Source: Candidatus Saccharimonadota bacterium (GTDB lineage Archaea; Micrarchaeota; Micrarchaeia; Micrarchaeales; Micrarchaeaceae). Taken from it: a DNA stretch of 32,000 nucleotides. Below are positions 4,079-31,200 of the stretch, in pieces; the first letter of the stretch is position 1; each line of letters starts with the position of its first letter. A program made the position numbers and the translations under genes. The notes below the pieces were generated by a model. That model was given only the letters and a program-made list of their open reading frames with translations. It ran no database searches and had not been told where the DNA came from. The stretch is from contig OY970071.1 of assembly GCA_963705375.1 (NCBI GenBank), positions 420,001 through 452,000 of the forward strand, given 5' to 3'.

Positions 4079-4318
4079 CCCACTGACGATTCCGTGTCTG
4101 AATCGGCGAGGACGCCCCACAGCATCCGCACACGACCTTATAGCAGAATTGGAGCGCCGGAGATATATATAGGTTTGTTAAAGTTGCAATTTTATCAAGT
4201 TTATTTGTTAAAATGACACTTGTCTTCCGCGCAACTTAAAAGAAAAAACAGGACAAGCACTCGAAAACCAAGAGTTTGCACCACAAGAGATAAAAGGCGT
4301 AGCGAAAATAGTAAGAGC

Positions 4319-4848: not shown

Positions 4849-6444
4849 ATGGAGGAGAGACACGCAGATGAGATTTTCAAGGAGTTCAAGGAGCATTCTG
4901 TAGCGGAGTTCTTCAAGAAGAACAGGCAGATGCTCGGCTACGCCGGGAAGGTCAGGTCTATGACGACAGTGGTGCACGAGTACGTGACCAACGCGCTGGA
5001 CGCCACTGAAGAGGCAGGAGTGCTGCCGGAGATAGACGTCAATGTGACCCAGATCGGCGAAGAAAGGTACAGGATAGGAGTGCTAGACAACGGTCCAGGA
5101 ATACCGAAGAATTACATCGGGAAGGTGCTTGCGACTGTGCTCGCCGGAACGAAGTTCCACCGCTACATGCAGCAGAGAGGCCAGCAGGGCATAGGCGGCG
5201 CAGGGTGCACCATGTTCGCGCAGACGACGACAGGCAAGCCGATATTCGTGAAGGCATCGACAGGGCCTGGAAAGGCCTATTCGTGCAATCTCGCAGTCGA
5301 TACGATGCACAACAAGCCAGTGGTGAGCAGCCTGCAGGACGTTACAGAAAACTTCAGGGGCCTGTTCGTCGAAGGGGAATTCGCAGGCATCAAGTACGAG
5401 AACAGCGAGCACGGCGTCTACGAGTACATAAAAAGGACAGCGCTGGCAAACCCTCACGCGCAGATCAAGCTTACCGATCCTGAAGGCAAGGAGCACGTTT
5501 TCATGAGAGCCGTAGAAAAGGTGCCGGATCGCGGAAAGCCGGCGCAGCCGCATCCTCTCGGCTTGTCGGTCAACGACCTCCTCGAATTCGCGCACGCGAG
5601 CCCAAGCAAGAGGATCTCGTCATTCCTTGTAGAGAGCTTTGAAAGGGTCACATCGAACAAAGTCAACGAGCTGAAAGCGATAGCAACCAGCGTCGATTTC
5701 TCTAAGGAACCGAAAGCGCTCGCGTGGCCAGAAGCCGAGGAAATCATCAAGGCGTTCAAGGCAGTCAGGTGGATCTCTCCTGATGCCAGCAGCGTGAAGA
5801 CCATAGGCACAGACCAGATAACGCTCGCACTCAAGAACGTGCTCAATCCTGAATTCATGAACGTGGTAGAGAGGAAGCCCGCAGTGTTCAGGGGAGGCGT
5901 GCCTTTCATAGTCGAAGCCGCTGTTGCGTTCGGAGGCAATTCCGGCCGCAAGACAGAGGAGGGCTACGCGGGCAGCATACTGAGGTTCGCGAACAGGGTG
6001 CCTCTGCTATTCGACAGCGGCGTGTGTGCAATCACAGTAGCAACAAAGGACATAGCGTGGAAGCGCTACGGAATAGACATGGACACGCAGCCTGTCAGTG
6101 TGTTTGTCAACATCTCCTCGGTGTACATCCCTTACTCTGGCGTCGGAAAGGAAGCGATCTCGCAGGAGGAGGCCATAATCGAGGAGATAAAGCTTGCGAT
6201 AATGGAAGCCGCGAGAGGCGTGCAGCGCTACATACATGGAAAAAGGCAGTTGAGCAGCGAGGAGGGCAAGTACAAGACGATAATGCGCTATTCGAAGCAG
6301 CTCTCACAGGATCTTGGGGAGATGACGGGCAGGGACAGCCAGAAGATAGAGAAAAGCGTGAACGAGCTTGTTCTCAAGCACTATCCGAGGCTCAAGCAGA
6401 ATGATGAAAAAGACACCCCACAGGAGCAACAAGCCAGTGGCTAA
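4849..6444 (+). CDS. top6B: DNA topoisomerase VI subunit B
   Basis: 531 aa from ATG 4849; the track start at 4840 is TTG. GHKL/Bergerat ATPase motifs are present: HEYVTNALDA (N box), DNGPGIP (G1) and GQQGIGGAG (G2). The N-terminus SVAEFFKKNRQMLGY and the length are typical of Top6B. Confidence 0.95.
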   Translation: MEERHADEIFKEFKEHSVAEFFKKNRQMLGYAGKVRSMTTVVHEYVTNALDATEEAGVLPEIDVNVTQIGEERYRIGVLDNGPGIPKNYIGKVLATVLAGTKFHRYMQQRGQQGIGGAGCTMFAQTTTGKPIFVKASTGPGKAYSCNLAVDTMHNKPVVSSLQDVTENFRGLFVEGEFAGIKYENSEHGVYEYIKRTALANPHAQIKLTDPEGKEHVFMRAVEKVPDRGKPAQPHPLGLSVNDLLEFAHASPSKRISSFLVESFERVTSNKVNELKAIATSVDFSKEPKALAWPEAEEIIKAFKAVRWISPDASSVKTIGTDQITLALKNVLNPEFMNVVERKPAVFRGGVPFIVEAAVAFGGNSGRKTEEGYAGSILRFANRVPLLFDSGVCAITVATKDIAWKRYGIDMDTQPVSVFVNISSVYIPYSGVGKEAISQEEAIIEEIKLAIMEAARGVQRYIHGKRQLSSEEGKYKTIMRYSKQLSQDLGEMTGRDSQKIEKSVNELVLKHYPRLKQNDEKDTPQEQQASG

Positions 6445-8795
6445 CCCAGCATCTCGGCAGGGTTGTCTGCATCGACAAGACACACCATGCCCGCAGAGAC
6501 GTAAGCCTTCAGCACCTCGGCATCCGAATTGACAGCCCTGTACATGCCGATCTTGAACTCGTCAAGCCTTGACGCGTTGAGGAAAGTAAGGTAGGTCTTG
6601 GATCCTGCAAACACAGGCATGTCCTTGAACTTGCTCGTGTCAGAGTATATCACTATGTACCTGCGATCGCCGCGGATCGTCGCAACTATGTCTGCCGAGT
6701 TGCTCATATCAAGATCTGTGAACACATACGCATGGGTTACAAGGAACAGTCGGAGTTTCTTGAACGTGGAGAGGTACTCTATGTCGTGCTTGCTGAGCGT
6801 CTCCCAGTCTTTTGGAGCGTACAGGTTGTCAGCGCGGACAAGGCTGTTGTTCGCTATCAGCTTGTCCAAAATCAGGGATATGTTGGCGTATGTCAGGCTT
6901 ACCGGCATGTTGTTGAAGCGTATGTTCGTAAGTATCGCCGCGTGGATTTCTTGCGCGGACAGGGGCATGAAGCGCCAGTGGTACGATGTGTTAAGCTTGC
7001 TGAACGCGGAGAGTATCTCATTGGGTTTGAGCTTTATGGCAGTCTTGGGCGAGGAAGGAAGAGATTGGACGTCTATGTAGAACTCGTCCCTGTTCGGCGC
7101 CCTTATGAGCACAACCATCAGCAAACAGACAAATCCGACAATGCCCAGCTCTATGTAATCCTTGTTTATCACTATGGCCGTAGACGGGCTAGAGGCAGCG
7201 TAGTGCAGCGTCTGCCCTAGCAGGTTTATCTCGAAATCGGAGTTGCCCTGCTGCGCAGGAGTTCCGCTAGGAAGCGTATACGAGAGCGTGCCGTTGCTGA
7301 GAACGCCGCTGGCGGGATAAGCGCCGTTGATGCTTATTGTGTAGTTTATGTTAGAAAGGGGGTGGCCGAGCGAGGTTATGTTGAAAGTGAAAACGCCTTT
7401 GGCTATGTCAGTCTGCACGAGCTTTACATTTATCTGCGATACGTTGAACATCGAGGCAGCATACTCGCCGTTTGTGAAGCTCTGCAGCTCAGCTATGTAC
7501 GTGCCAGGGCCAACGCCGAAGTTGATGTAGTTGATGAATGTGAAGTTGCCGCTCGCAGTAGAAAAAGGCAAAGGTATGCTCCCTACAGGAGTCATGTTGT
7601 TCAGCGCGTAAACGGTGATGTGCGGCTGTATGCTCGTCTGCGCATTGCCGTGCGTGGCCACTGTCATCGTAACGGAAACCGTTGAACCTGGCACTATCTG
7701 CGAAGGCACGAGAATAGAGCCGTTTAACATGAAGTGCGGCTTGAAGTAGAGATACTCATAGGTCGTGTTCTGGCCTGTGGTGGAAGGGTTTGACGCCTCG
7801 ATCGAAAGCACAATTGTGCCATTATTGATGTATGAAAGAGCATGGAGATACAACGGAATAGGCGAGAGCGTAACTCCGAAAGACCCGGAAGTAACGATGT
7901 TGTTTGTGCCTACCGAGCCGCCGGAATATTTGGTCAGCCAGAAGAGCTGCCGTATCGCCTCGGCAATATCATGACCGGCATAGCCTGCAGAGCTCCAGGA
8001 GCTCGGAGAATTTGGGAACACTACGAGCCAGCCCTTGCTCACGTTCTCGTATGACATTGACCCGTAGCTTGTGCCGGACTTGAGCGAAAAGGTGCTGGAG
8101 TTGAAATAGTAGCCAGGAACAGAGCCATGCGAAGCAATGCTAGTGTCAAGGAAGGCTAACCTTGAAAGGTCAGAAGGCACGACAACAGACCCGGGCACAA
8201 GAGAGCGAGAAAAGTTCTGCCCTACATATATTATGCTTGCTCCTCTGTTCAGCATCGACATTATTGGCGAAACACTGGAATTTCCTCCTGCTAAGAATGC
8301 GCTTGGAAGAAGGCCGTTGAGCACCACAAGAATCGCGTAAGGCGGTAGCGCATTCAGGTTTGAGATGTCGAGATAGTGGACGTTGCTTGAGCTGTTTACG
8401 ATCCCGTATGCGAGCAGATCAGAGGCTATCGCCGAGTCTATTGCACCGGTGTTTCCGCAGTCGAAGCATTCGTTGTCGGAGTTGAGTATGTATATGGCCC
8501 TTGGGACCTTTGAGCTGAAGATCGAGACGCTCATGTTGAGCATCGAAGTGTTTAATACACTGTACTTGACAAGCAGGTACGGATTCACAAGTTGACTGCC
8601 AGAATATAGCAGATCTTGATTGGACACGTTAGCCGATAGGAAGGGAACCGAAGCCTTTTGCGTTGAATTGGTGGATGCGCCGCCGATGAGCGCAGACACT
8701 ACCGACTGAAGGTACAGCACGGCCACTACCGCCAACAGCAAGACCACGACTATGGCTAGCAGTGCGGGCTTGCTGAGAATCTTTCTACCGGGCAT
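6441..8795 (-). CDS. Bitopic membrane protein with large sequon-rich ectodomain and ~220-aa cytoplasmic C-terminal domain (function unknown)
   Basis: 784-aa ORF with an ATG start. It has an N-terminal TM (ALLAIVVVLLLAVVAVLYL) and a ~520-aa N-x-S/T-rich region with Ig/CARDB-like beta stretches. A second TM (LGIVGFVCLLMVVLI) is followed by a soluble tail. No family was recognised. Confidence 0.8.
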   Translation of the reverse strand: MPGRKILSKPALLAIVVVLLLAVVAVLYLQSVVSALIGGASTNSTQKASVPFLSANVSNQDLLYSGSQLVNPYLLVKYSVLNTSMLNMSVSIFSSKVPRAIYILNSDNECFDCGNTGAIDSAIASDLLAYGIVNSSSNVHYLDISNLNALPPYAILVVLNGLLPSAFLAGGNSSVSPIMSMLNRGASIIYVGQNFSRSLVPGSVVVPSDLSRLAFLDTSIASHGSVPGYYFNSSTFSLKSGTSYGSMSYENVSKGWLVVFPNSPSSWSSAGYAGHDIAEAIRQLFWLTKYSGGSVGTNNIVTSGSFGVTLSPIPLYLHALSYINNGTIVLSIEASNPSTTGQNTTYEYLYFKPHFMLNGSILVPSQIVPGSTVSVTMTVATHGNAQTSIQPHITVYALNNMTPVGSIPLPFSTASGNFTFINYINFGVGPGTYIAELQSFTNGEYAASMFNVSQINVKLVQTDIAKGVFTFNITSLGHPLSNINYTISINGAYPASGVLSNGTLSYTLPSGTPAQQGNSDFEINLLGQTLHYAASSPSTAIVINKDYIELGIVGFVCLLMVVLIRAPNRDEFYIDVQSLPSSPKTAIKLKPNEILSAFSKLNTSYHWRFMPLSAQEIHAAILTNIRFNNMPVSLTYANISLILDKLIANNSLVRADNLYAPKDWETLSKHDIEYLSTFKKLRLFLVTHAYVFTDLDMSNSADIVATIRGDRRYIVIYSDTSKFKDMPVFAGSKTYLTFLNASRLDEFKIGMYRAVNSDAEVLKAYVSAGMVCLVDADNPAEMLG

Positions 8796-8805
8796 TGGTC
8801 CACTC

Positions 8806-8958
8806 TTACTTTCCAGAATCTAACCGCGCTTCTTTCCTGCGCTCTATCATGCGCATCAAGAATTTCGTAAGGAAGGTCTCGTTGTCATGGAGCTTTTTGA
8901 CGATCGCAACCACGCGCATGTTTTTGACACGCTTGTTTATCACGACAGCATATTTCAC
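8806..8958 (-). CDS. Small basic protein, 50 aa (below the ORF-track size cutoff)
   Basis: GTG at 8958 to TAA at 8806-8808 gives VKYAVVINKRVKNMRVVAIVKKLHDNETFLTKFLMRMIERRKEARLDSGK. It fills the gap between the stop of the 242-aa gene (8963) and the start of the 784-aa gene (8795) with spacers of 4 and 10 nt. The only support is operon fit and a non-random-looking sequence. Confidence 0.35.
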   Translation of the reverse strand: MKYAVVINKRVKNMRVVAIVKKLHDNETFLTKFLMRMIERRKEARLDSGK

Positions 8959-8962
8959 AACA

Positions 8963-9691
8963 TCAGCTCTTTATCTCCACATAGCCGAGAGACACCATCT
9001 TGTTGAGTATCTGTTCTGCTCTTGCGGGCTGGGTCTTGTAGTTGCTGGCAAACTCGTTTATGTCTATCGTGTTGCCGTGGGACTCCACCCAGTCCTCGAC
9101 CATCGCCATGAGCGCGTCGTCTGAGTACGTTTCGAGCTCCTTCAATCGCTCCTGCAAGTTCTTGTTCTCCTCGCTTAGTTGCGATGCTTGTACGGTGAGG
9201 GTCTTGTTTGACGCGGTGAGCTCGATGTTCAGCCTCTTTATCTCCCTGTACTCGTTGAACAGCGAGTCATAGTTGTTGAACAGTGCGCTGTAGCTCTGAG
9301 ACAGCGAATCCAGCACGTTGTCTATCGCAGAATCCGTGTGCTGGAAGAGTTCGCGGTTGTCAGCGGCGTATAGGTCAGACACCAGCGACAGCGTGCTCAG
9401 CAGAGTCTTTATGACTAATAGCCTGCGCAGCTTTGGGCTCGAGTCAGGCGCTATCGTGTATTCTACTTTAGCAGAATCCTTTCCAAGAGTCATCAGCATG
9501 AAAAGGAACGGCTTTTTCTGTATGTCCCTGCTCTCGACCCTTAGCAGCGAAACGCCGTTCTCTGTCTCTTTGATGGAAAAGAGCTCGAGCGTTGAAAGGC
9601 GAGACATTATGTCGGCATAGCTTCCGACGAGCTTCGCCTTCACCTCAAGCGCGTCAGTGTTCGGTTCAATCGAAGTAGTATCGCCAGGCAC
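8963..9691 (-). CDS. Coiled-coil protein with C-terminal winged-helix-like domain (function unknown)
   Basis: 242-aa ORF. The central heptad-like region reads LTASNKTLTVQASQLSEENKNLQERLKELE. The C-terminal segment INEFASNYKTQPARAEQILNKMVSLGYVEIKS resembles a wHTH. It is the first gene of a three-gene minus-strand operon. Confidence 0.75.
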   Translation of the reverse strand: MPGDTTSIEPNTDALEVKAKLVGSYADIMSRLSTLELFSIKETENGVSLLRVESRDIQKKPFLFMLMTLGKDSAKVEYTIAPDSSPKLRRLLVIKTLLSTLSLVSDLYAADNRELFQHTDSAIDNVLDSLSQSYSALFNNYDSLFNEYREIKRLNIELTASNKTLTVQASQLSEENKNLQERLKELETYSDDALMAMVEDWVESHGNTIDINEFASNYKTQPARAEQILNKMVSLGYVEIKS

Positions 9692-9985
9692 ACGACCACA
9701 ATTGGCGTTCTATCTCAAATTTACTATAAATATCTTTGTTTTTGCCTACATTCATGAAAATTGAGAAGTGCTATTCAAAAAGGACAACCGCGTTGTGCTG
9801 GCGCCAAAAGCTTAAAAATGCTTGTGCATACGCCTGCCGATCGGAAAGAAAGGAAAGCGCGCCCTCGTGGACTTTCTCGAAAGCTACAGAAAAAAAACAG
9901 ACCCAAGAAAAAGTACAGTGCCTTATTTGAAAAGCTGCGTTCTGGGCCACGTATTTAACTTCAGAGAACTGAGATGCAACGAAAG

Positions 9986-10018
9986 TTTTAAATATATGTT
10001 TAAACATATGTTTAAACA
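9986..10018 (+). promoter_or_regulatory. vapBC promoter/operator: TATA-like TTTTAAATATA plus two tandem 12-bp repeats forming a 22-bp perfect palindrome
   Basis: ttttaaatata lies at 9986-9996. atatgtttaaac occurs twice in tandem at 9994-10005 and 10006-10017. tgtttaaacatatgtttaaaca at 9997-10018 is a perfect palindrome ending 18 nt before the vapB ATG (10036). It overlaps the transcription start expected ~25 nt downstream of the TATA. Confidence 0.45.
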
Positions 10019-10035
10019 CATAATTAGGCGGATCA

Positions 10036-10248
10036 ATGGTCAAAACAATAACGATAAGGGAAGAGGTTTACAAAGACCTAATGAAAATAAAAAGTGTGGA
10101 CGAAAGCTTCAGTGTGCTCTTTGAAAGATTGATCAAGTCAGCGAGCCCAAGGGACGTACTTGCAAAAATTAGAGGGAGTGTGGAGTTCAAAAACAAAAAG
10201 AAGATGATTGCAGAGATTTACGCCAAAAGGGCAGAGGTAAGGGCGTGA
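10036..10248 (+). CDS. vapB: VapB-type antitoxin (COG1753/PF02697-like, as recalled)
   Basis: 70 aa. The N-terminus MVKTITIREEVYKDLMKIKSVDESFSVLFERLIK matches the archaeal small-antitoxin pattern. A 4-nt GTGA overlap links it to the downstream PIN gene. Confidence 0.75.
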   Translation: MVKTITIREEVYKDLMKIKSVDESFSVLFERLIKSASPRDVLAKIRGSVEFKNKKKMIAEIYAKRAEVRA

Positions 10249-10619
10249 TAGTCATAGATACTGACGTATTGATGGAAATATATGATAAAAGGTCTAGATC
10301 AGGAAATGCAGCATTTGAAAATATCATGAATAGCGGGGACATATTTTGCATAACTGCGATAAACCTCCACGAAATCTTGTATGGGCTCCTGAAATATGCA
10401 AAGCCTTCGGAATATCTGCTACAATTGCCAGTATTGGACTACACTAAGGAAGATGCGCAGCTTGCTGCAGAAATGGAAGTCAGAGCAGAATTGAGGGGCA
10501 GAAAAGCACTAAGAACCGATGCGATGATTGCAGCAATAACAATCAACAATAATGCTAAGCTGTACACAAACAACAAGAACCATTTCGAACATTTTGATGG
10601 CCTAGAGCTGGTTCACTAG
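10245..10619 (+). CDS. vapC: PIN-domain ribonuclease toxin VapC
   Basis: 124 aa. MIVIDTDVL carries the first acidic PIN residues. NLHEILYG and LRTDAMIAAITI supply the further conserved E and D. Size and coupling to the upstream antitoxin are typical. Confidence 0.88.
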   Translation: MIVIDTDVLMEIYDKRSRSGNAAFENIMNSGDIFCITAINLHEILYGLLKYAKPSEYLLQLPVLDYTKEDAQLAAEMEVRAELRGRKALRTDAMIAAITINNNAKLYTNNKNHFEHFDGLELVH

Positions 10620-10737
10620 AGTTTGACATTCGTATGCAAAGACCTAAGGCGTAGAGCATACTTCATAGTTCCAGCGTTTTCTGTTTGCGACGAAGGCAGG
10701 TTTTGCCATGTGCGCAGGATGGGCCCGCGAGTCGCGT

Positions 10738-11103
10738 CTATGCGTTTGGCTTGGCTTTTGTTTCCGGCATGCGCAATGCAGGCATCCAGCTGAGCTGCGA
10801 CAGCAGGTACATGAAAAGCACAACGGCACCTCCATAGATCACGCCCTTCATCGGATTGAACGCCACAAGCACCGCAGCAAAAACGATCCCGATGGCAACG
10901 CATTCGGCCTGGTGCCTTTTGTACTTTTGGCGCACGTTCCTATAGTTCTCGAAGCAATCGCGGCACACGACAAGCCCGTATTTCTTCTCGGTGCCAGTCA
11001 CGCGTTTGAACCACCTTATCGTGTTTAGCACGTAGTCCGGTAGGACTTCGAGACCTTCACGTTTGTTGCCGCACATTATGCAGCGGGATTCTTTTGCCTT
11101 CAT
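10738..11103 (-). CDS. Zn-ribbon membrane protein (N-terminal CxxC...CxxC, two C-terminal TM helices)
   Basis: 121 aa. The Cys pairs are CIMCGN...CRDCFENY, followed by the basic linker RNVRQKYKRHQ. The TM helices are CVAIGIVFAAVLVAF and VIYGGAVVLFMYLLSQL. It starts 4 nt after the upstream gene and is the last gene of the ATPase operon. Confidence 0.7.
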   Translation of the reverse strand: MKAKESRCIMCGNKREGLEVLPDYVLNTIRWFKRVTGTEKKYGLVVCRDCFENYRNVRQKYKRHQAECVAIGIVFAAVLVAFNPMKGVIYGGAVVLFMYLLSQLSWMPALRMPETKAKPNA

Positions 11104-11107
11104 AGCA

Positions 11108-11416
11108 TCAACTCATGTCCAGCGCCGCGTCGTATATGCGGCCTGCCTCTGCGCTGACGCGCTCTTCGTCAAGCGTTTCAAAAACTTCATTTATCGTGAG
11201 GTCGTCCATTCCAAGACGCCTCAGCACATCCGCACACCTGTCACGGTCTATGCCCCCTTTTTCCAGCGCGGCCGTAAACGCCAATGCGTTGATGTGCCTG
11301 TGGCTCTTCTCCATGCTGCTGAACAAAGACTGTATGGCCTTCTCACTCATGCCGAAGATCGTGAGAACGCGCCTCATCTCATTCCTTGCTATGGTGAAGG
11401 TGGTCGCTTTAGGCAT
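11108..11416 (-). CDS. Small helical protein homologous to the C-terminal domain of the adjacent ATPase
   Basis: The ORF spans 11108-11431 with GTG at 11431. ATG at 11416 gives MPKATTFTIARNEMRR... and an 8-nt overlap with the ATPase stop. An ungapped ~67-aa alignment to the ATPase tail shares the core I-x-S-L-F-x-x-M-x-x-x-H-R. Confidence 0.7.
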   Translation of the reverse strand: MPKATTFTIARNEMRRVLTIFGMSEKAIQSLFSSMEKSHRHINALAFTAALEKGGIDRDRCADVLRRLGMDDLTINEVFETLDEERVSAEAGRIYDAALDMS

Positions 11417-12926
11417 GCCCGACACCCGCACTTGAGATTATCCTTGTTATCAACGTATCCTCTATGCTCATGCTCTTCAGGAATGATACTATGTTCGATA
11501 GGCTCACGTTGGCGCCGGCAAGGCTCCTTATGAGGTCCAGTATCTTCATGGCGCGGTGATGGTTGTCCATATCAGTAAACAGGCTGTCGATGGTATCTCC
11601 GCCGACGTTGTACTCTATCAGCTTGTTCTTGAGCTCCTCCTTCTCGAACTGGTATTCGCGCGTGAGGACGTTCGCGGCTATCTCACTCTGCATTAGCACG
11701 TCGCTGAGGTCTAGAGTATAGACGTACAGCGGCTCTTCCCCGTGTATGCGCCCGAGGACGAACGTCTCTGGGAAGCGCAGCGAAGTCTGGAAGGCCATCT
11801 CGACAGCGGCTTGGCCGACACCGAATTTGCTTATCTCGTCACGTATGAAATCTGAGAAGTTGAGCGACCCCTGTATGTAGTTCATGAAGCGCTCGAATTT
11901 TATTCTCAGTATGAAGTTCGTGCCCACGTTAGAGAATATCGCCTCTGCTATGTCTGTCGGGTTTTGCGATGCGACTATGAGGCCGAACTGGTATTTCCTG
12001 CCTTCCCTGACTATCATGATGGCGTCGCTCTTCTCATCGCTTGCGACCTTCCATGCCTCGTCAAGGACCACGAGGGCCCTGAGCCCCTTTGTTTCGCTCC
12101 AGCCTTCGAAACGCATCTGCTCCTTCAGCGTCTGCAGTATGAAAAGCGCTGCGAGGGCCCTGAAGCGCTCGTCAGGCAGCGCTGACAGGTCCATGTCAAC
12201 GAGCCCGGATTTAACGAGTTCGCTTATGTTCAGGGTGCTCTGCCTTGCGAAGTAATCTTCACCTTCTCTTGCGAACTGCTTGAGCCTGTATATCGTGTTC
12301 TCCAGTTCTGCAGGATACTGGTATGTGCCCTCCTGAAGCTTCTCCTGCAGATACTTGACTACATCGTTCAATGTAGGGGCTTGGAGAGCGGCCGGTGGAA
12401 GCTCCGCAAGCTCGAAGCCTGCCTTCGCATATGCCTGTTCCAACGCCTCTTGCGTCAGGCGCCTCTGCTCAGGGTACTGCGCTATGTCGGTCAGTATCTC
12501 GAATGAGGTTATAAGCTGCTTTGCCCTGTCTATCGGCTTCATGCCTGACAGGTCCATTATGTTTAGGAAGTCGCCCTTTCCTAGAGCAATCACTACGCCG
12601 CCGGTCTGCTTCACCCATGCCCTGTATTCGCCAGCCCAGTCTATTATAACAGCGTTTGTGTTCCAAACGTAGCTTGCGCGTATGAGCAGCGTCTTGACGA
12701 AGTAGCTCTTACCGGAACCAGTTATGCCGACAACGCATATGTGCGGGTTCGTCAGATTGAGGAACGACCATGTGAACGGCACCTTGAAGATCTTGGTCAT
12801 GCCTATGTAAATGGATTGGAAGGGGTCGCTGAGCAGCACGCTTGCGGGCGGTTCCGGAGGCCTTGACAAGAAAGCCCTTCTGGCTATCTCGTTGCTCATT
12901 ATGTGCTGCAGTTTGAGCATGGTCAT
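11409..12926 (-). CDS. FtsK/HerA-superfamily ATPase, VirB4/TrbE/CedB-like ATPase domain with extra C-terminal helical domain
   Basis: Walker A is VVGITGSGKSY and Walker B is ALVVLDEAWKV (DEAW type). REGRKYQFGLIVASQNPTDI corresponds to the RK...TQ motif of VirB4/HerA. The track ORF begins at GTG 12980. ATG 12926 lies ~28 nt downstream of a TATTTATA box (12951-12958), consistent with a leaderless start. ATG 12899 is an alternative. Confidence 0.88.
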   Translation of the reverse strand: MTMLKLQHIMSNEIARRAFLSRPPEPPASVLLSDPFQSIYIGMTKIFKVPFTWSFLNLTNPHICVVGITGSGKSYFVKTLLIRASYVWNTNAVIIDWAGEYRAWVKQTGGVVIALGKGDFLNIMDLSGMKPIDRAKQLITSFEILTDIAQYPEQRRLTQEALEQAYAKAGFELAELPPAALQAPTLNDVVKYLQEKLQEGTYQYPAELENTIYRLKQFAREGEDYFARQSTLNISELVKSGLVDMDLSALPDERFRALAALFILQTLKEQMRFEGWSETKGLRALVVLDEAWKVASDEKSDAIMIVREGRKYQFGLIVASQNPTDIAEAIFSNVGTNFILRIKFERFMNYIQGSLNFSDFIRDEISKFGVGQAAVEMAFQTSLRFPETFVLGRIHGEEPLYVYTLDLSDVLMQSEIAANVLTREYQFEKEELKNKLIEYNVGGDTIDSLFTDMDNHHRAMKILDLIRSLAGANVSLSNIVSFLKSMSIEDTLITRIISSAGVGHA

Positions 12927-12950
12927 ATGGCAGAAAGCACTCATCCAAAG

Positions 12951-12958
12951 TATAAATA
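12951..12958 (-). promoter_or_regulatory. TATA box (TATTTATA on minus strand) for the ATPase operon
   Basis: Plus-strand tataaata at 12951-12958 is centred ~28 nt upstream of the in-frame ATG at 12926. Confidence 0.4.
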
Positions 12959-13058
12959 CTTTCTCCTGCAGGCTTTGCACACAAGATATTCGGAAATCCG
13001 GTCAAATATTGAAATCACGGTTTGTGCGAAGGCCTGTTTCATGAAGGAGACGCTGGCA

Positions 13059-14108: not shown

Positions 14109-14951
14109 TCAGCTCTGCTGGTCGAACTGTGCCGCTAGCGCGCCGAAAGATGTAGGCAGTGAGAAGTTGAACTGGAACAGAGTGTAGAGCTCGCTCCCCA
14201 CCACACGGACAAGGTCCACATCAAGGCCACTCATGGCTATCTGCAGAGCGTTTAATTGTGTAGACAGTGCGTCAAGCGAGGCCTTCTCGCTCACGCCAAC
14301 TGCAGTAGTCTCCAAGTACATGATTGTCGCTATTGGCTTCTCGCCCTGCGATATCCTGTCTATCTGCGTTTGCAGCACAGCTATCCTTCGTCTCAGGTCG
14401 GTGAGTATCATCTCATTGGAGGAGCTGCTCTGCATTGCCCTTGCCAGTTGGAACTCCTGGAACGAGCGTTTGCCTTCGATTTCGTCGCGCGCTTTCTGAA
14501 CATCAAGACCGGTTGACAGCACATGGAATTTGAACGGAAAGTCCAGGTTCATGAGGATCCTCTCCCAATTCTCAGGGGCCTGCAGGAGCTTTGCCTGGTC
14601 AGCCTCGGCATTTGCCTGCTCTTGCTTGAAGTAATACGGGAACAGGTTCCCGCTAAGATAGCCTGTTGCATAGTAAAGGCCCTTGACATTCTTGACTATG
14701 GCATCCTGGCTGCTGATGATCTTGTAGTTGATTGCCGGTTGGAACGTTATGCCAAGAACGTTCGTCACGAAGGAGAAGACAGTATAGTCTATGAAGTTGA
14801 GCACCAGAAGCAGGCCCATCCCGGCGATGATAATAAGCAGCGCGACGATGGAGAGAAAACCCTTGCCTATCGAAGCAAGGTTGGTTATCGCAAGCAGCGG
14901 CATGAGCATCGTCATGACGAGATAGGATATTCCTTCAGAGTCCACCATCAT
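14109..14951 (-). CDS. Membrane protein: N-terminal TM hairpin plus ~200-aa soluble domain (paralog of 14948-15781)
   Basis: 280 aa. The TM helices are LVMTMLMPLLAITNLASI and FLSIVALLIIIAGMGLLLVL. The soluble domain contains GLYYATGYLSGNLFPYYF, DFPFKFHVLSTGLDVQKARDEIEGKR and ...IATIMYLETTAVGVSEKASLDALSTQLNALQ. An ATGA overlap links it to the upstream gene. Confidence 0.8.
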   Translation of the reverse strand: MMVDSEGISYLVMTMLMPLLAITNLASIGKGFLSIVALLIIIAGMGLLLVLNFIDYTVFSFVTNVLGITFQPAINYKIISSQDAIVKNVKGLYYATGYLSGNLFPYYFKQEQANAEADQAKLLQAPENWERILMNLDFPFKFHVLSTGLDVQKARDEIEGKRSFQEFQLARAMQSSSSNEMILTDLRRRIAVLQTQIDRISQGEKPIATIMYLETTAVGVSEKASLDALSTQLNALQIAMSGLDVDLVRVVGSELYTLFQFNFSLPTSFGALAAQFDQQS

Positions 14952-15781
14952 ATCACCTGCTCCTGTATGCCCTTGCTTATCTGCTCGCTGACTGTCGAGT
15001 ACGGAATGAGGAACTCCGGCTCTATGAACGTCAGGAGATCTTTGCCCGTCACTATGCTAGGAGAGATGCCGAGAACAGTGCCTATTCCGGCCATGAGCTC
15101 CTTTGCCTTCTGCTGCGCTATTGTGGCGGCTTCGAACTCCTTGCTTCCGAAAGCGGATATCGCCGCGTAGCTGGCCAGTTCCAGAGAGGTCGTTGCGCTC
15201 ACGTTGTCTAGCATCTTTCGCCACATCGAAAGCTGGCCTCTCACGCGCTCTATTTTGGGCTGAGGAGCACTTTCCTGGACAAGATTGCTCTCTTCCGCTT
15301 CTTTGTTGTTTATCGCGTCGCGCAGCTGCTGTATGTACGAATCTTTGTTCATGATATAGAGGCTTGTCGTAAACCTTGTAGGGTCCTTGCTGATGCCGAC
15401 AAGCCGGCTGACCTGCCTTGTGAAAGCGGTCTTCTCGTCATCGCTCATCTCTGTCGATGAGCTGTAAAGAGGGATGCTTATGTACACTGTTGCAGTGTAC
15501 GTGTCGCCGTGCTGCTGCAGGACCGAATCTGCGCTTGTGGAAAGACGGTAAGGTTCCTCTTTGCTCAGCACCACGTTCCTGCTGCGCTGCTGCAGCATGG
15601 GCATTATTATGTATGAGTAGCGCCTTGAGAGGCACGCACCAACGTCAACGTCCACTGCGATAAGCAGAAGAAGAAGCTTTACCAAGTCCATGATCCCGCC
15701 ATGGGGAAGAACGATGGCTAGCCCGAGAATCGCAAAGGATGCAACCAATAGGCCCAGGAACAAAACGGTCTTGCTGTCCAC
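14948..15781 (-). CDS. Membrane protein: N-terminal TM hairpin plus ~200-aa soluble domain (paralog of 14109-14951)
   Basis: 277 aa with a GTG start. The TM helices are VLFLGLLVASFAILGLAIVL and LVKLLLLLIAVDVDV. The soluble domain contains DTYTATVYISIPLYSS, TRFTTSLYIMNKDSYIQQLRDAINNKE and ...LELASYAAISAFGSKEFEAATIAQQKAKEL, collinear with the downstream paralog. A TATA-like ATAAAAAT lies ~32 nt upstream. Confidence 0.8.
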   Translation of the reverse strand: MDSKTVLFLGLLVASFAILGLAIVLPHGGIMDLVKLLLLLIAVDVDVGACLSRRYSYIIMPMLQQRSRNVVLSKEEPYRLSTSADSVLQQHGDTYTATVYISIPLYSSSTEMSDDEKTAFTRQVSRLVGISKDPTRFTTSLYIMNKDSYIQQLRDAINNKEAEESNLVQESAPQPKIERVRGQLSMWRKMLDNVSATTSLELASYAAISAFGSKEFEAATIAQQKAKELMAGIGTVLGISPSIVTGKDLLTFIEPEFLIPYSTVSEQISKGIQEQVI

Positions 15782-25604: not shown

Positions 25605-25744
25605 AAACGCACGCAGACTAATGCCTGGCAATCAATAAAAATATGTCGCTTGCCTGCCGCAGGTTTGGAATGGCAGTGAGACCTGCCTTTTCATCGCAGC
25701 AGGAGCGCACTGCCGCAGCGCGCACCTTTCTTCGCTAGCAAGAA

Positions 25745-25790
25745 TCAATAGAAGAAATGAAAAGAAAGAATCTTGGCAAAGACTGCCAAG
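25745..25790 (-). terminator. Hairpin plus T-rich tract downstream of the pilin-like gene
   Basis: cttggca (25772-25778), a 5-nt loop, then tgccaag (25784-25790). On the minus strand this is followed by ATTCTTTCTTTTCATTTCTTCTATTG. The hairpin starts ~44 nt after the stop at 25834. Confidence 0.45.
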
Positions 25791-25833
25791 TGGCCAATGC
25801 CGCGCACAGTTTAGCAGATTAGCTAACTGCGGA

Positions 25834-26220
25834 CTAACCGCATTGAGATGCAATAGAGGTGTTGCTGGTTATGACGCCCATGATCCATGGAGCTATCATC
25901 GCAAGCACGACGCCGGCAATCCCTCCGGTTATCATGCCCATGCCGTAGCCCTGGATCTGTCCCTTGAGGTTTCCTGGAGCTATGTTGCCGCCAGCATACA
26001 GCATGGCGCCCAGAACAAGAAGCGTAAGGCCGAGCACATACACTGCGGTGTGCACGATGCTGTACACCGCGCATATAGGAGCGAGCACGTTGGCAAGGCC
26101 CGACGTCGCCGCTACAGGCACCAGAGCGCACACATATCCGAGGAACATTGCAAACATTATGGTAAACTTGAAGTACATCCCGTACTTCTGCATCGCCAAT
26201 AGGATTTTGCTTGGATTCAT
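25834..26220 (-). CDS. Small two-helix membrane protein, candidate VirB2/TrbC/CedA1-like conjugative-type pilin
   Basis: 128 aa. It has a long leader with a hydrophobic core ending ALVPVAA-TSG. Two Gly/Ala-rich hydrophobic helices follow (VYVLGLTLLVLGAMLYAGG and GMGMITGGIAGVVLAMIAPWIMGVI), joined by a short loop containing a basic residue (NIAPGNLKGQ). It has its own promoter region and terminator. Confidence 0.5.
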   Translation of the reverse strand: MNPSKILLAMQKYGMYFKFTIMFAMFLGYVCALVPVAATSGLANVLAPICAVYSIVHTAVYVLGLTLLVLGAMLYAGGNIAPGNLKGQIQGYGMGMITGGIAGVVLAMIAPWIMGVITSNTSIASQCG

Positions 26221-26266
26221 TTTATGCGCCCGTACTTAAAACAGTAGGAATATTGCATGCACAATG

Positions 26267-26274
26267 TTTAAATA
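26267..26274. promoter_or_regulatory. Near-palindromic TATA element TTTAAATA in the 60-bp divergent intergenic region
   Basis: tttaaata at 26267-26274 lies between divergent starts at 26220 (minus) and 26281/26344 (plus). A second AT-rich element, GAATATTG, is at ~26248-26255. Confidence 0.4.
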
Positions 26275-26280
26275 ACTATC

Positions 26281-27555
26281 ATGCGTCTAACCCCAAGGCA
26301 AACAATATATATTAAGCGTGTCAAAACAGAATATGGTGGTTGGATGCTGCAAATAATGCTGAGTTTCGGCGCATTGTACACGTTCATACCGATAATAATA
26401 ATCGTCATACTCATAGCGGCCGCGGCAGGATTGAGCAGGGGATGGGACATATTCACGCTCTTCGGCTTCGAGGCCATAACCAACATGGCAAGGGGCGGCG
26501 GCAGGGGCGCAGGCAAGGGCATGAGGGCAGGAGGATACACGGCAGGTTCGTCAGCGGCAATCACGTTCAGGTCGAGGGTGCCTGCTCCTATGAAGTCTCC
26601 TGGAAAGGGAGCGGCAGGCACACTCGGAGCAAAATTGGGACAACCTATAAAAAGGAAATATCAGAATTGGAGAGCAACAAGGGCAGAAGCGCAAGTAGCG
26701 GCAGGAAAGAAAGGTAGGATTACTGGGAAACCGGCACAACTATACGCACCCAGACAGGGGACATTCAGACATCGAATAGGGGGCAAGGCACCAAAGGAGC
26801 TCACGATTATTAAGTCTCCGGCCGACGTAAAGGCACCAGCAGGGCTTTCTAAGAAGAGCACAGCATTGCATCAAGAACTAGGGTATCTCAATCCCGGAGC
26901 AGGAAAAACATCAACATCAGGAGAGTACTTGCAAAAGGGAGGTGATAAAGCAACTAGGGACTACCTTCGCAGCCACAAGGAAGATTACAGGCAGTACAGG
27001 GCAGAAATCAGGGCAGCCCAGAACATAAAATATGGAAAAACAGCATCGTATGCAAATATGGCAATATATGCAGCGATGCAAAAACAGATGGGAAACAGTC
27101 CAAAACTAAAAGGCACTCTGCCTCCAAGTCCATTTGGAAGTAATACTCCAGGGCGCATGGCAAGGGCAAAGTTTGTGTTAAAAACACTGAAGAATGCCGG
27201 ATTTAAGAATGTAGTTAAGGCAGAATGGGGTGCGGAAAAACAATTTTACAGAAAGGCATATGGGAAGACTGCACACACGCGAGGCATCACATATACCAAA
27301 AGCAGATTGACTAACTGGCTGCCCACCCAGAAAAAGACGATAGACAATCTAATGATAAAAGATCCGCTCAATATGCTGCATGCACGAGAAGAATTTCTCA
27401 AGGATCTCAGGGTAAAGTGGAACATTGCTCCTGACGCTAAGCTTGAGGTTTTGGACTTGACACACCATCAAGCGACGAAACTCATAAAATACATGAAGAA
27501 TTACACTGCAACCAAGAAGTCCCGGAACCAGCTTATTGGGGCGTTAAAGCCGTAG
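26281..27555 (+). CDS. Membrane-anchored, extremely basic Lys/Arg/Gly-rich protein (function unknown)
   Basis: 424-aa ORF with ATG at 26281 and an alternative ATG at 26344. It has a single TM (LSFGALYTFIPIIIIVILIAAAAGL). Low-complexity basic sequence follows (ARGGGRGAGKGMRAGG, KSPGKGAAGTLGAKLGQPIKRKYQNWRATR), then a K/R/Y-rich C-terminal half. Confidence 0.75.
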   Translation: MRLTPRQTIYIKRVKTEYGGWMLQIMLSFGALYTFIPIIIIVILIAAAAGLSRGWDIFTLFGFEAITNMARGGGRGAGKGMRAGGYTAGSSAAITFRSRVPAPMKSPGKGAAGTLGAKLGQPIKRKYQNWRATRAEAQVAAGKKGRITGKPAQLYAPRQGTFRHRIGGKAPKELTIIKSPADVKAPAGLSKKSTALHQELGYLNPGAGKTSTSGEYLQKGGDKATRDYLRSHKEDYRQYRAEIRAAQNIKYGKTASYANMAIYAAMQKQMGNSPKLKGTLPPSPFGSNTPGRMARAKFVLKTLKNAGFKNVVKAEWGAEKQFYRKAYGKTAHTRGITYTKSRLTNWLPTQKKTIDNLMIKDPLNMLHAREEFLKDLRVKWNIAPDAKLEVLDLTHHQATKLIKYMKNYTATKKSRNQLIGALKP

Positions 27556-27767: not shown

Positions 27768-27983
27768 GTGGCACTAATCGACAGCCTAGGCATAACGATC
27801 GACAGCTTGATAGGGAAGCTCCACAGCATGCTTGCGAACTTCGCAAGCGACATCGAGGACATGATCGAAGAGAACGAGGCAGTCACTGTAGACGACATTC
27901 CGCACTCTGAGGGAGAAGATACAAGAGCGGCTCGACAGGAACGAGGAGATAACAGACAACCAGAAGCTCCTCACGATGCTTGA
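27768..27983 (+). CDS. Small acidic protein, or 5' part of a frameshifted ~134-aa coiled-coil gene
   Basis: GTG start 13-40 nt downstream of a TTTTATAT element (~27724-27731). The sequence reads ALIDSLGITIDSLIGKLHSMLANFASDIEDMIEENEAVTVDDI, followed by a low-complexity tail. Confidence 0.45.
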   Translation: MALIDSLGITIDSLIGKLHSMLANFASDIEDMIEENEAVTVDDIPHSEGEDTRAARQERGDNRQPEAPHDA

Positions 27984-28173
27984 CCTTTTTGCAACTGACA
28001 AGGCAGTGCTTGAGATAATACGCGAAGACGCAGACGAATGGATCCAACTCCTGGAGAGCATAGAGAACAACATAAAAGGGGGCTCAGGAGAGATAACCCC
28101 AAAAGAAGAGGAAGAGATAAAGCAGATAGGCAAGCTGACCTCGGAGATAAAAACGCTCATAAGAAAAGACTGA
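27976..28173 (+). CDS. Small acidic coiled-coil protein, or 3' part of a frameshifted gene
   Basis: The sequence is MLDLFATDKAVLEIIREDADEWIQLLESIENNIKGGSGEITPKEEEEIKQIGKLTSEIKTLIRKD. This frame is already open from 27892. Confidence 0.5.
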   Translation: MLDLFATDKAVLEIIREDADEWIQLLESIENNIKGGSGEITPKEEEEIKQIGKLTSEIKTLIRKD

Positions 28174-28205: not shown

Positions 28206-31200
28206 TCATGGCTTTGTTGCAGTCAATGGATTTACAGGTGCATACTTGCTGAGATTGACCGCAGGTGCCGGAGTCGGACCATACAATCCACTGAGAATTC
28301 TTCCGAGCTTGTCAAAATCAACCGCAGAACCACCAAAGGCAGTAAGATGCTGGACTGCATTGTCTGCAGTGACTGGGCCAAGGGCGCTATATGCTTCGGC
28401 GAGCTTGGTCACACCAGGCACAAATCCTGCGAGGGCAGGTTGACCTGCTTCAATGAGCGCAGCTGTGACTTTCAGCGCGTCGTCCACATGTTTCACTAGC
28501 GCCAGCCCCAAAGGAGTGTTGACATGACTAGACGCATAGGTTGCCATTCCGACAAGATTGGCATGGTAGTTCGGATATGCTTCATCAAGCGCCTGTATTG
28601 CAGTCGCATTGTCCGCAATAAAGGCCTTAACTTCGTCCATGTGTATTGCGGCCACGGTTGTAGGCGTCACAGCGTGGAGATGGTCAAGACAGTCTTTCCA
28701 TCTTTGTTTAGTAGCTGCAGGAGCAGCTGCATATGCCTCTTGAAGCGCAGCCTTTTCAGGCCCGTGCCAGAAGGTCTTCTTCGCCAACTCGGTCTGCTCA
28801 TGGACAATATCAAGCGTGGGACTCGGCCTGTTCGTTTGTGTTATATTACGCCTAGCAGTAGTTTCGGGATGCATCAAAGGCCCAGCATTGGGCATACCTG
28901 CCAGAAGCTCTAGCGCCCTAACAACACCACCGCTGCCCGCTTTCTGGATTATGTTGATGTCGAAGAGCTTGGCAGAACATTGACCAAGCCGATCCATAAT
29001 CTGTGCCAAGGTCAGATCTTCTTCGTGCTTGTCAGCATAGCTTACAGTATATGTGATAGTAAGAGTTGTGTCCACAAAGGTATCAATTAGAGCAGATGCT
29101 GCCGTTACGGTAGCACCAACATTAGGAAGGCCCTTCTTTTCTATAGAGGCGAGCTCGTTTAGTTTTGCACGTAGCGCTCCGAAGTCGCCGTGCCTGCCGG
29201 CAAGCTGAGTGCCTTTGATGCTTGAGCCAAGCACCTCCTCCAAAGTAGCAGCGTACGCTTTGACCAGTTTGTATTGTTCGGCAGCCTCACCAGACAGAGT
29301 CCTGGCAAATGAAGCCAAATTGGGGTTTGGTTGTCCTTTTTGCACTTGCAGGCGTGATAGGATATCTTCATGACCGGCCTTGCAACCATGGTCATAGCTG
29401 TCAGCATTATCGTCAGTTTTGTTTTCTATCAGAGAAAGCAGAGCTCCAGACAATTTGTCTGCCGCATTTATACGCACCAGGAGCGCCTGTGCCTGGGTAG
29501 TGTACTCAGATTCTGCGTCACGTAACGCGTCACGTGCCGCTGAGACCTCTGCCATTGCGTCACGCACAGCCTGAACAGCCGCATTATTGGCAGACAACAG
29601 CTCCTGCTTAGCATCTCGTAGAACAGCAGGTAAGTCCAAGGTATTATCACCATCTCGTATTGTGCGGAATGTATTTAGAGCTTCCAGCTGCAGTTCAACC
29701 TTCGCCTTTTGAGGAGCGGTGGTGTTCGGATCGTCACGTTTTGTAGTGAGGTTTTTAACAAGATTATCTGTGCCAAGGCCAAGAGCATAAGAGGCTGTTG
29801 CGGAGTTAAACGGTGCGCGGTTCATCAAATCAAAAATAAATGCATCAAATACGGCTCGTGCGTGTTTAATTTCGGTCCTTTTGGCATCTTCTGCTGCCAG
29901 TTTCGCATCCAAGTCACTTTCCAGAGCAGGTATATGAAGTGTAATATCGTGCAGTTCAGTTAATTGGGCATCTCTGTCGCCCTTTAAAATTTCCTGTCCA
30001 CGATTAGAAAGCCTTTCGACAGTTTTCGCTGCTGATTCAGCTGCCGTCATTCCGAGTATAGTGGCCTCATTGGCGTTGGATTTTGAGTATGGTATTTGCA
30101 TAATATCACGTAGATTGTTAAGTGTTTTAGATATATATTCTTTTGCTTTGTGATATGGAAGCCTATTTATATCTTCCGGTACTGGCAGGATACTGAGGTC
30201 GACGAGAACCGGTTCGTTTTCGGGGATTGACGGGATTCCGGGCTCGGCACGAATCGGCACGCGGCTTATGCCCAACAGGGCAGCGACCGGGGCATCGTGC
30301 TCGTTTCCATCAAGGGCCTGCACCGTCTCGACAGGCACAGGCGCTCCTTTCACAGGCAAGAGCTGTTTCAGGCTTTCCAGTTTGTCGGCGCAGTAGCTTA
30401 TCTTGTCCGAGTGAGAGTCCAGCATTTCAGGATTATCCAGGGAATGCGTGGTCTTTTTGTCCAGCGAAGCGGCAAGCGCCTCCAGATCGTTTTGCAGCGA
30501 ATCCACCTGAGGGGCCAACAAGGAGCGGTCGTCTCCAGCATTCAGACCGTCAGCAATACTGTCAATCACAGCAATCACTTGCTGCAGGCTGGAATCGTCC
30601 TCGCCGTCCAGCTTTCCGTTAAACGTGGCAAGGATGCTCTTCACGTTATTCAGCAGATCCATCGGGTCTTTCGGCGGCGCAGAGCGCAAAAGGGCGTCAA
30701 GCGCGTCGACCTGCTCGTCCGATCTGTAATCTTCATCATCACAACCCACAGACTCCGGATCGGCATCGGACGGAACACCGCCTTCGGTCCCGCCCTTAAA
30801 CACGTCGATCAAAGGCCCAAGCATCTCCGTGGCGGCATCCACCACATAAGCAGCATCAGGATCGCACAGTCCGAGCGAATTACTTAATGGAACCAGCAGT
30901 AAAAATACAGAATTCAGTTGCGGATACAGCACCGCGCCATCGTCTTCTGTATCAAGCGTTGTTGAAAGTGCGTCTAGCGCACCAAGCACGGTTTGCAATC
31001 CCGATATGTCTGGGATGTTGGGATTTGCAAGAAGGCCTGACAGAACATCGCGGGCTGATGACAGCACGTCTTTTGGCGCTTTTTCAGAGAAAGGCACAGG
31101 CTCATTGAGCGCCTCTAGCGCAACCGGCGAGAGGACCAGAGGAAGTTGAAGCGGAGAAGATAGCCCCTGTTCGAGTGCCTTTGCCTTGAGTTCCGCATCT

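Follow-up and report, generated by a model that had tools for sequence, protein, structure and literature searches.

A VirB2/TrbC-like pilin candidate with a conserved cysteine pair at the head of a conserved ATPase and membrane-protein cluster in Micrarchaeota

Introduction

Conjugative pilins of the TrbC/VirB2 family (PF04956), typified by the T-pilin VirB2, RP4 TrbC, and R388 TrwL, combine a long Sec-type leader with a pair of hydrophobic helices connected by a short loop with a basic residue, and their genes stand at the head of clusters that include a VirB4-type ATPase. The same layout and gene position are found for the 128-residue product of a small gene on contig OY970071.1 (assembly GCA_963705375.1; Micrarchaeota in the GTDB lineage), within a stretch of 32,000 nucleotides (positions 420,001 to 452,000, forward strand) hereafter called the window. 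A first-pass annotation had singled out this gene as a candidate VirB2/TrbC-like pilin. Following its comparative analysis, we favor, at a probability of roughly 0.6, the reading that the product of the open reading frame (ORF) is the precursor form of a VirB2/TrbC-type pilin which, together with a VirB4-like ATPase cluster, would build a pilus or short conduit for cell contact or exchange.

Pili of the F, T, and R388 types are tubular and contain lipid in stoichiometric amounts, with RP4 TrbC as an exception (PMC13434634), and some bacterial pilins, namely cyclic TrbC and TrhA, are closed by head-to-tail cyclization (PMC13434634; PMC12037004). The Micrarchaeota hairpin is instead flanked by a conserved pair of cysteines. 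It further departs from the TrbC/VirB2 systems in its one-membrane archaeal host, in the lack of VirB7/9/10, relaxase, and coupling protein, in the existence of multi-domain and fused versions, and in sequence, as the window protein is undetectable by profile and an hhalign comparison with Agrobacterium-type VirB2 is negative.

A second point of reference is provided by the Patescibacteria, ultra-small and host-dependent organisms whose chromosomal clusters carry arrays of PF18895/VirB2-like pilin genes and no detected relaxase (PMC12102498). Several diverged pilin genes per locus likewise occur in the archaeal family, as in related locus L008 with six, and PF18895 is the profile that matches the most hairpin domains. 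The two differ in belonging to archaea versus bacteria, in their partners (six novel polytopic paralogues versus MPF-FATA components), and in that the archaeal matches to PF18895 shown individually stay below its gathering cut-off; PMC12102498 describes neither a Cys pair nor tandem intragenic repeats for the Patescibacterial arrays.

Within the archaea, the Ced and Ted DNA-import systems of Crenarchaeota are chromosomal, domesticated derivatives of type IV secretion systems (T4SS; PMC9905601; PMC11868833). As in TedC (AVA|QA), a signal-peptidase-I site is predicted for the window pilin, reading VAA|T, with AAQ in relatives; the cluster ATPase finds its best NCBIfam matches in CedD and CedB; and the N-terminal hairpin of a polytopic partner, in the g853 family here, appears to resemble the pilin, as has been reported for CedA/CedA1 and VirB6/VirB2 (PMC9905601). 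According to PMC9905601, even the components of Ced and those of Ted lack any recognizable likeness to one another in sequence. The Micrarchaeota system is set apart by its DPANN phylum as opposed to Crenarchaeota, by ATPase scores that fall well short of the Ced cut-offs (76 and 65 bits versus 600 and 700), by an ATPase that lacks transmembrane (TM) segments and an N-terminal domain and is preceded by two proteins of two TM helices each, and by six channel-like paralogues versus one or two; the pilins are likened by their described features.

How DPANN archaea physically connect to their hosts and exchange material with them is an open question. In cryo-electron tomography of a Micrarchaeon co-culture, tubes between cells and a large complex in the envelope were seen, and the work assigns no proteins to them (PMC11329633). 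Our literature searches turned up neither a description of the present pilin family or cluster in DPANN nor a paper that connects Micrarchaeota or DPANN with VirB2-like pilins or a T4SS-like cluster. The 14-gene system considered here, comprising pilin, channel-like paralogues, and VirB4-like ATPase and present in every related locus recovered, is a concrete candidate for the contact hardware. If the assignment is true, the range of T4SS-derived archaeal machines such as Ced and Ted would reach beyond Crenarchaeota, and the Patescibacteria, ultra-small symbionts among the bacteria, would offer a parallel in their chromosomal T4SS and arrays of pilin genes. The conjugative-type pilin would also gain new designs, namely a Cys-stapled hairpin, modules in tandem, and pilin–adhesin fusions.

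The precursor and its family

The gene is real: when 1.84 billion representative proteins were searched by profile, 268 relatives emerged at E<=1e-3, and 10 close relatives of the window protein were found. Its leader, MNPSKILLAMQKYGMYFKFTIMFAMFLGYVCALVPVAA|TSG, combines a basic n-region with an h-region of 20 residues and places V at −3 and A at −1, and the close relatives compared carry A-x-A, AAQ, or AQA at the putative cleavage position; removal of the leader at VAA|TSG, after A38, is predicted from these features. An AlphaFold2 model of the mature part, built on a 93-sequence alignment, is a helical hairpin with a predicted local distance difference test score (pLDDT) of 89, in which helix 1 spans residues 3–39 of the mature numbering, the loop GNIAPG residues 40–45, and helix 2 residues 46–80; the full-length precursor models at a pLDDT of 67. 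K86, at the boundary between loop and helix 2, is the sole basic loop residue.

Across the family, the conserved unit is about 85 residues long and reads C-x-[VI]-Y ... LGGALYAG-x-H-[IL]-[LM]-P-G-x-x-[RK]-G-x-x-Q-G-[YW]-G-M-G-M-I-x-G-G ... A-P-[YFW]-I-L ... C. The predicted cytoplasmic loop is its best-conserved part, with P, R/K, G, Q, G, and Y/W almost invariant. Of 162 family domains, 160 have R or K at the loop position, 129 possess both flanking cysteines, and 128 contain exactly two Cys. The ORF, the leader ending in PVAA-TSG, and the two hydrophobic helices around a basic loop are as the first-pass annotation had described them.

That annotation had also denied the protein a class III signal and with it membership of the archaeal type IV pilins. 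A protein of that class or of the archaellin-like kind, matured by a prepilin peptidase, would likewise be a small, secreted, hydrophobic candidate for a surface filament, and the leader does contain a "KYG". However, its G is not conserved among relatives, nor is any class III cleavage motif ([KR]-[GA] before a single helix); the TM scan of the precursor finds three hydrophobic segments, not one N-terminal helix with a globular, beta-rich head; and the cluster holds no PilB/PilC-type partner genes. This assignment was rejected, and we give it next to no weight.

The domain also occurs in unusual architectures. In about 60 of 159 representatives it is fused, mostly at the C-terminus and in a few at the N-terminus, to large Ser/Thr-rich or immunoglobulin (Ig)-like ectodomains. 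Three proteins carry four to seven pilin domains in tandem (P0011, seven; P0012, four; P0013, at least four). The seven copies of P0011 (locus L055, 2675-5890) lie downstream of a 390-residue ectodomain, are 36–60% identical to each other, and retain the Cys pair in 6/7 within the aligned stretches; being diverged and mostly furnished with the Cys pair, the repeats are real and old. Since each tandem unit has an even number of TM helices, it would be placed N-out/C-out, with the basic-residue loop kept cytoplasmic as in conjugative pilins. P0011, P0012, and P0013 may be seen as "poly-pilins" that are either cleaved or built in as concatemers. At L008 (355-10312), six consecutive pilin-domain genes, four large (494–984 residues, domain C-terminal) and two small, all stand upstream of the same machinery cluster.

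These architectures invite the explanation that the ~85-residue hairpin is a generic two-TM anchor or sorting module of surface proteins, of which the stand-alone proteins are minimal versions and whose T4SS likeness is compositional. The fusions to large surface proteins speak for it, as do the sub-threshold scores of the individually shown matches to pilin families and the recurrent noise that TM-rich families produce in such searches (both below). A passive anchor, on the other hand, has no need of a loop that is the best-conserved part of the domain, and seven diverged tandem copies make no sense for one; the gene is strictly linked to the VirB4-like ATPase cluster; and the best E-values, 1e-7 to 6e-6, lie well beyond noise at about 1e-3 and come from two independent pilin families only. 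We regard an anchor module as improbable.

With respect to distribution, all 30 related loci from GTDB species genomes are from Micrarchaeota. Relatives in annotated databases are "hypothetical" where named, apart from one mislabeled cytochrome oxidase subunit, and none carries a precomputed Pfam domain. The viral contigs scanned hold no relatives of the pilin family, which argues against a viral origin. P0161 and P0207 bear the NCBI label "Candidatus Marsarchaeota", which could reflect mis-binning or a wider distribution. A divergent subfamily, P0208-P0210, has the loop motif GAETRARA..W and retains the Cys pair; it is weakly linked to the family of the window pilin (E 1e-9 to 7e-5) and to PF04956/PF18895, and at locus L054 it does not adjoin the machinery cluster. 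The subfamily may form a bridge to other lineages.

Distant relationship to conjugative pilins

Because the window protein alone is undetectable, members of its family were scanned singly against Pfam, where the gathering cut-offs are 27.9 bits for PF04956 (TrbC/VirB2) and 26.6 bits for PF18895 (T4SS_pilin). Among 93 hairpin domains, PF18895 was matched by 45 and PF04956 by 16 at E<=10, and at E<=1e-3 these were the sole Pfam families to appear (PF18895 with five members, best 5.7e-6; PF04956 with two, best 2e-6). Among 136 full-length precursors at E<=0.01, PF04956 was matched by 39 (best 1.3e-7), PF18895 by 18, and any other family by at most two. As the matching members are kin, these counts are not independent, and the weight rests on the best E-values. 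Extrapolation from the pairs of bit scores and E-values places the best PF04956 relative (1.3e-7) at about 32 bits and the best PF18895 relative (5.7e-6) at about the threshold. The six TrbC alignments of full-length precursors that were shown individually run in register from the leader through helix 2, over profile positions ~6–97 of 98, with 17–23 bits. A scan of the 136 relatives against NCBIfam gave only TM noise at E>=1e-3, such as a lipoprotein signal peptidase model matched by 14 members at E>=1.4e-3, and a single TrwL match at 1.3e-3.

A number of results weigh against a kinship with conjugative pilins. The relatives shown individually are all below gathering, at 17–25 bits for PF04956 and 14–21 bits for PF18895. 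The window pilin itself matches nothing by sequence in Pfam or the PDB even at E<=10, and searches with small profiles were likewise empty. When the 93-domain alignment was compared by hhalign with 120 Agrobacterium-type VirB2 sequences, the probability was 1.4%, against 20% for a reversed control; as this set is one narrow clade, the negative result limits the broader homology and does not overturn it. Foldseek searches of the PDB with the full-length and mature models returned generic helical hairpins and no conjugative pilin in the top 50; CedA1 and TedC were likewise missing from the matches. To these are added the fusion of the domain to large proteins in some 40% of representatives, atypical of conjugative pilins, and the silence of the six polytopic cluster proteins, which in Pfam and PDB profile searches gave no VirB6/TrbL signal and no match at all.

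The profile similarity to VirB2/TrbC pilins, named as a check in the first-pass annotation, holds for the family, in which PF04956 membership is marginal, and fails for the window protein on its own and for the Agrobacterium comparison. The structural similarity to solved conjugative pilins did not materialize in Foldseek, a method that discriminates poorly between two-helix hairpins. Its best matches to the mature model were hairpins of alpha-pore-forming toxins (E 0.39), raising the alternative of a pore former that inserts into membranes or of a holin-like toxin hairpin. The top matches are the membrane-inserting SmhB and AhlB hairpins of tripartite toxins, at a query-normalized TM-score of at most 0.70, but their E-values are 0.4 or worse, and all that matches is a bare helical hairpin; nothing in the surroundings points to phage, toxin, or immunity functions, and the viral contigs scanned hold no relatives; and the gene keeps a conserved chromosomal position beside housekeeping genes such as topoisomerase VI subunit B (Topo VI B). 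The toxin reading was rejected as a triviality of the fold and is very improbable. On balance, with moderate confidence, the profile evidence suggests that the pilin is a distant branch of the TrbC/VirB2–T4SS_pilin superfamily.

Signals for separate expression

The first-pass annotation had given the pilin gene its own AT-rich promoter and, after it, a 7-bp-stem hairpin with a T-rich tract. Both elements are present (Table 1), and both recur among relatives. A TATA-like hexamer lies at −62 to −29 in 27/38 related small pilin genes versus 3.5% of random windows, often preceded by GAAAG. The hairpin downstream of the gene is CTTGGCAG-TCT-TTGCCAAG followed by ATTCTTTCTTTTCATTTCTTC, with eight pairs including one G-T, or seven if only Watson–Crick pairs are counted. 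A G+C-rich hairpin and T run follow within 110 nt 3′ of the last small pilin gene in 15/35 related loci, as compared to 1.5% of random windows and 3.6% of positions after other long ORFs, and plain T runs occur at several further related loci. Promoter and hairpin-plus-T elements are conserved by position, not by sequence. This comparative conservation supports the view that the pilin gene is a separately promoted unit, bounded by a putative terminator or stabilizer.

The next gene, g243, has a TATA-like box of its own, TTTTTATT, and similar TTTTTATT/ATATTTATTA boxes are found at the equivalent position in loci L006, L007, L010, L050, and L052. A second G+C-rich inverted repeat, GGCAGGTCTCACTGCC in minus-strand reading, is located at 25672-25687 in the intergenic region between the pilin gene and g243; it attains a terminator score on the plus strand only, where no gene ends.

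The conserved cluster and its ATPase

The placement of the gene at the head of a membrane cluster, likewise claimed at first pass, is conserved in about 50 recovered loci (30 genome loci and 22 metagenome loci), which share the co-directional order pilin(s)-g243-g522-g853-g476-g373-g359-g377-g277-g280-ATPase-g121-g242-g784 over ~20 kb and 14 genes. The cluster accompanies the pilin in every related locus recovered.

The ATPase matches DUF87, AAA_10, and P-loop_TraG in Pfam, and its best NCBIfam models are CedD (3e-21), CedB (4e-18), and a VirB4-like family (3e-16), all below cut-off (75.7 bits versus 600 for CedD, 65.2 versus 700 for CedB). In the PDB it matches HerA and, over 270 residues, VirB4 (4ag5); among plasmid proteins TraC/VirB4 are best, and 354/516 matching plasmids are conjugative. 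It follows g280 in all of the approximately 20 loci long enough to show both. In CedB and CedD, TM segments and halves of the VirB4-like N-terminal domain are fused to the ATPase (PMC11868833), whereas the Micrarchaeota protein has neither TM segments nor such a domain. By sequence, it is a member of the CedB/CedD superfamily and not an orthologue of either. The two paralogues directly upstream, g277 and g280 (mutual hhalign Prob 95%, E 4e-8), have no PDB match; by analogy, they could be split-off tethers of the ATPase, similar to VirB3 or to the VirB4 N-terminal domain. At L045 and L046, a pilin gene lies ~570 bp upstream of g277-g280-ATPase.

Among the six polytopic proteins, hhalign finds mutual relationships at probabilities of 95–99%, and all have in common the motif LR(S/T)xPFxRxxGG. 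They are candidate VirB6/CedA-like channel components, notwithstanding that searches of these proteins and of g277, g280, and g784 for VirB6/TrbL, VirB3, and VirB8 found none. They also have the look of a new membrane-protein family with a sixfold expansion in one operon. In the g853 family, the TM1 region (first hairpin) aligns with the pilin domain at an hhalign probability of 82% (E 1e-5; reversed control 0.2%).

This resemblance suggests that the domain can work inside an integral membrane protein, and it bears on a further alternative, in which the window protein is a T4SS-pilin homologue that forms no filament and serves as a membrane-embedded or short "stub" subunit of the translocation channel. 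PF18895-type proteins may do likewise in the systems of monoderms and Patescibacteria, where no VirB2 pilus has been observed. Such a role agrees with the preference of domain-only members for PF18895 over PF04956, with the lack of an outer membrane in archaea and monoderms, and with the monoderm T4SS classes that have no pilin genes (PMC12102498). It sits less well with a separate promoter and terminator-like element, which fit a subunit needed in large excess, with the pili formed by the archaeal relatives CedA1 and TedC (PMC9905601), and with the tandem poly-pilins and ectodomain fusions, which are more easily explained by polymerization and surface display. A channel subunit of this kind is, in our judgment, rather unlikely.

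No relaxase, coupling protein, or integrase was recognized in the cluster upon scanning the window proteins. Housekeeping genes flank it. Pfam identifies Topo VI B and a gene of KH/KRR1 type in the window, a content that marks the DNA as archaeal. Given these flanks, the lack of viral relatives, and the lack of relaxase, coupling protein, and integrase, the cluster looks chromosomal and vertically inherited and, like Ced and Ted, domesticated rather than plasmid-borne. In its conserved tail, g121 has a Cys-rich N-terminus (a zinc ribbon by eye) and one TM helix; g242 has a coiled coil and a C-terminal region with a weak Rrf2-type helix-turn-helix match (weak Pfam matches ZapB and Rrf2); and no known domain was found in the membrane protein g784.

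Table 1. Positions of the pilin-like gene, its expression signals, and the associated cluster (window numbering).
Feature	Coordinates	Strand	Basis or remark
BRE (B recognition element)/TATA-like promoter, GATAG TTA TTTAAA C; TATA at 26267-26272	26262..26282	minus	52 nt upstream of ATG
Pilin-like gene, 128-residue precursor	25834..26220 (stop codon included)	minus	ATG start; ORF list, relatives, family-level PF04956 and PF18895 matches
Predicted Sec-type leader, residues 1-38, ending VAA|TSG	26107..26220	minus	read from sequence; A-x-A / AAQ sites in relatives
Hairpin domain Cys50-Cys127: helix 1, GNIAPG loop with K86, helix 2, flanking Cys pair	25840..26073	minus	domain consensus and AlphaFold2
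Terminator-like element: hairpin 25790-25772, T-rich tract 25771-25741	25741..25790	minus	sequence
TATA-like box ATATTTTTATTG	25633..25644	minus	~30-40 nt upstream of g243; separate machinery promoter
g243, membrane protein with six TM helices, 243 residues	24873..25604	minus	invariably follows the pilin gene(s) as next conserved gene; synteny, TM scan
Six paralogous polytopic membrane proteins, 522, 853, 476, 373, 359, and 377 residues	15829..24727	minus	several with Ig-like or Ser/Thr-rich ectodomains
g277 and g280, paralogues, each with two N-terminal TM helices and a ~200-residue soluble domain	14109..15781	minus	directly upstream of ATPase
HerA/VirB4-superfamily P-loop ATPase	11409..12980	minus	orthologue conservation begins near M19, ~12926
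g121, g242, g784, conserved cluster tail	6441..11103	minus	synteny in L033-L052

A model for assembly and function

Taken with the pilin reading, these features can be arranged into a provisional mechanism. The pilin would be transcribed from its own BRE/TATA promoter, and most transcripts probably end at, or are stabilized by, the hairpin and T tract, a role suggested by their comparative conservation; the subunit would thus be made in excess over the machinery genes, which appear to have a promoter of their own. Loss of the ~38-residue Sec-type leader is predicted to leave a mature two-helix hairpin of some 90 residues that would adopt the topology of conjugative pilins, with both ends outside the cell and the GNIAPGNLK loop in the cytoplasm. 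An extracellular disulfide between the two conserved cysteines, which lie close to either end, probably staples the hairpin. Extraction of the pilin from the membrane, by analogy to T4SS, Ced, and Ted, would then fall to the ATPase together with the membrane platform, as would its polymerization into a pilus or short conduit, which may mediate contact and the exchange of macromolecules, DNA perhaps among them, with other cells, plausibly the host. So viewed, the protein would represent an undescribed variant of VirB2-like pilins within a chromosomal T4SS/Ced/Ted-like system of DPANN archaea, the filament and its cargo being what we infer by this analogy.

A more far-reaching proposal can be made, tentatively and with more doubt than conviction on our part. 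Micrarchaeota may universally carry a domesticated, relaxase-less T4SS-like machine whose disulfide-stapled pilin, along with poly-pilin and adhesin-fused variants, builds a conduit to the host. It would be the archaeal counterpart of the pilin array reported to be essential in one Patescibacterium, and would identify the structures that connect archaeal Richmond Mine acidophilic nanoorganisms (ARMAN) or Micrarchaeota with their hosts. The Cys pair would then constitute a third way of closing the hairpin, after cyclization and linear pilins.

An identification of the pilin with the 6.7-nm intercellular nanotubes of PMC11329633 was considered and rejected: the tubes belong to the host according to that study, and we estimate that their wall, at ~1.2 nm, is too thin to be built from a helical-hairpin pilin.

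Other features of the window

Between g280 and the ATPase, the window holds an ORF for a soluble protein of 214 residues (13059-13703, minus strand) that has no Pfam match and the look of a lineage-specific insertion. No homologue of it was detected in related loci, where the g280–ATPase gap is usually ~0–150 bp; in L034-L036 and L051 the gap measures ~1.3 kb, and its content was not looked into.

Divergent from the pilin gene, 26281-27555 (plus strand) encodes a very basic protein of 424 residues with one TM helix and no Pfam match. A homologue is situated directly upstream of the poly-pilin gene of L055, and others occur in L018, L020, and L036. Two further proteins lack a Pfam match, namely an acidic one of 65 residues (27976-28173, plus strand) and an Ala/Asp/Glu-rich one of 1241 residues (28206-31931, minus strand). 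Large surface proteins with Big_3_5 Ig-like domains are encoded on the minus strand at 1448-4120, where Kelch repeats are also present, and at 20593-23154, such that adhesin-like content surrounds the cluster.

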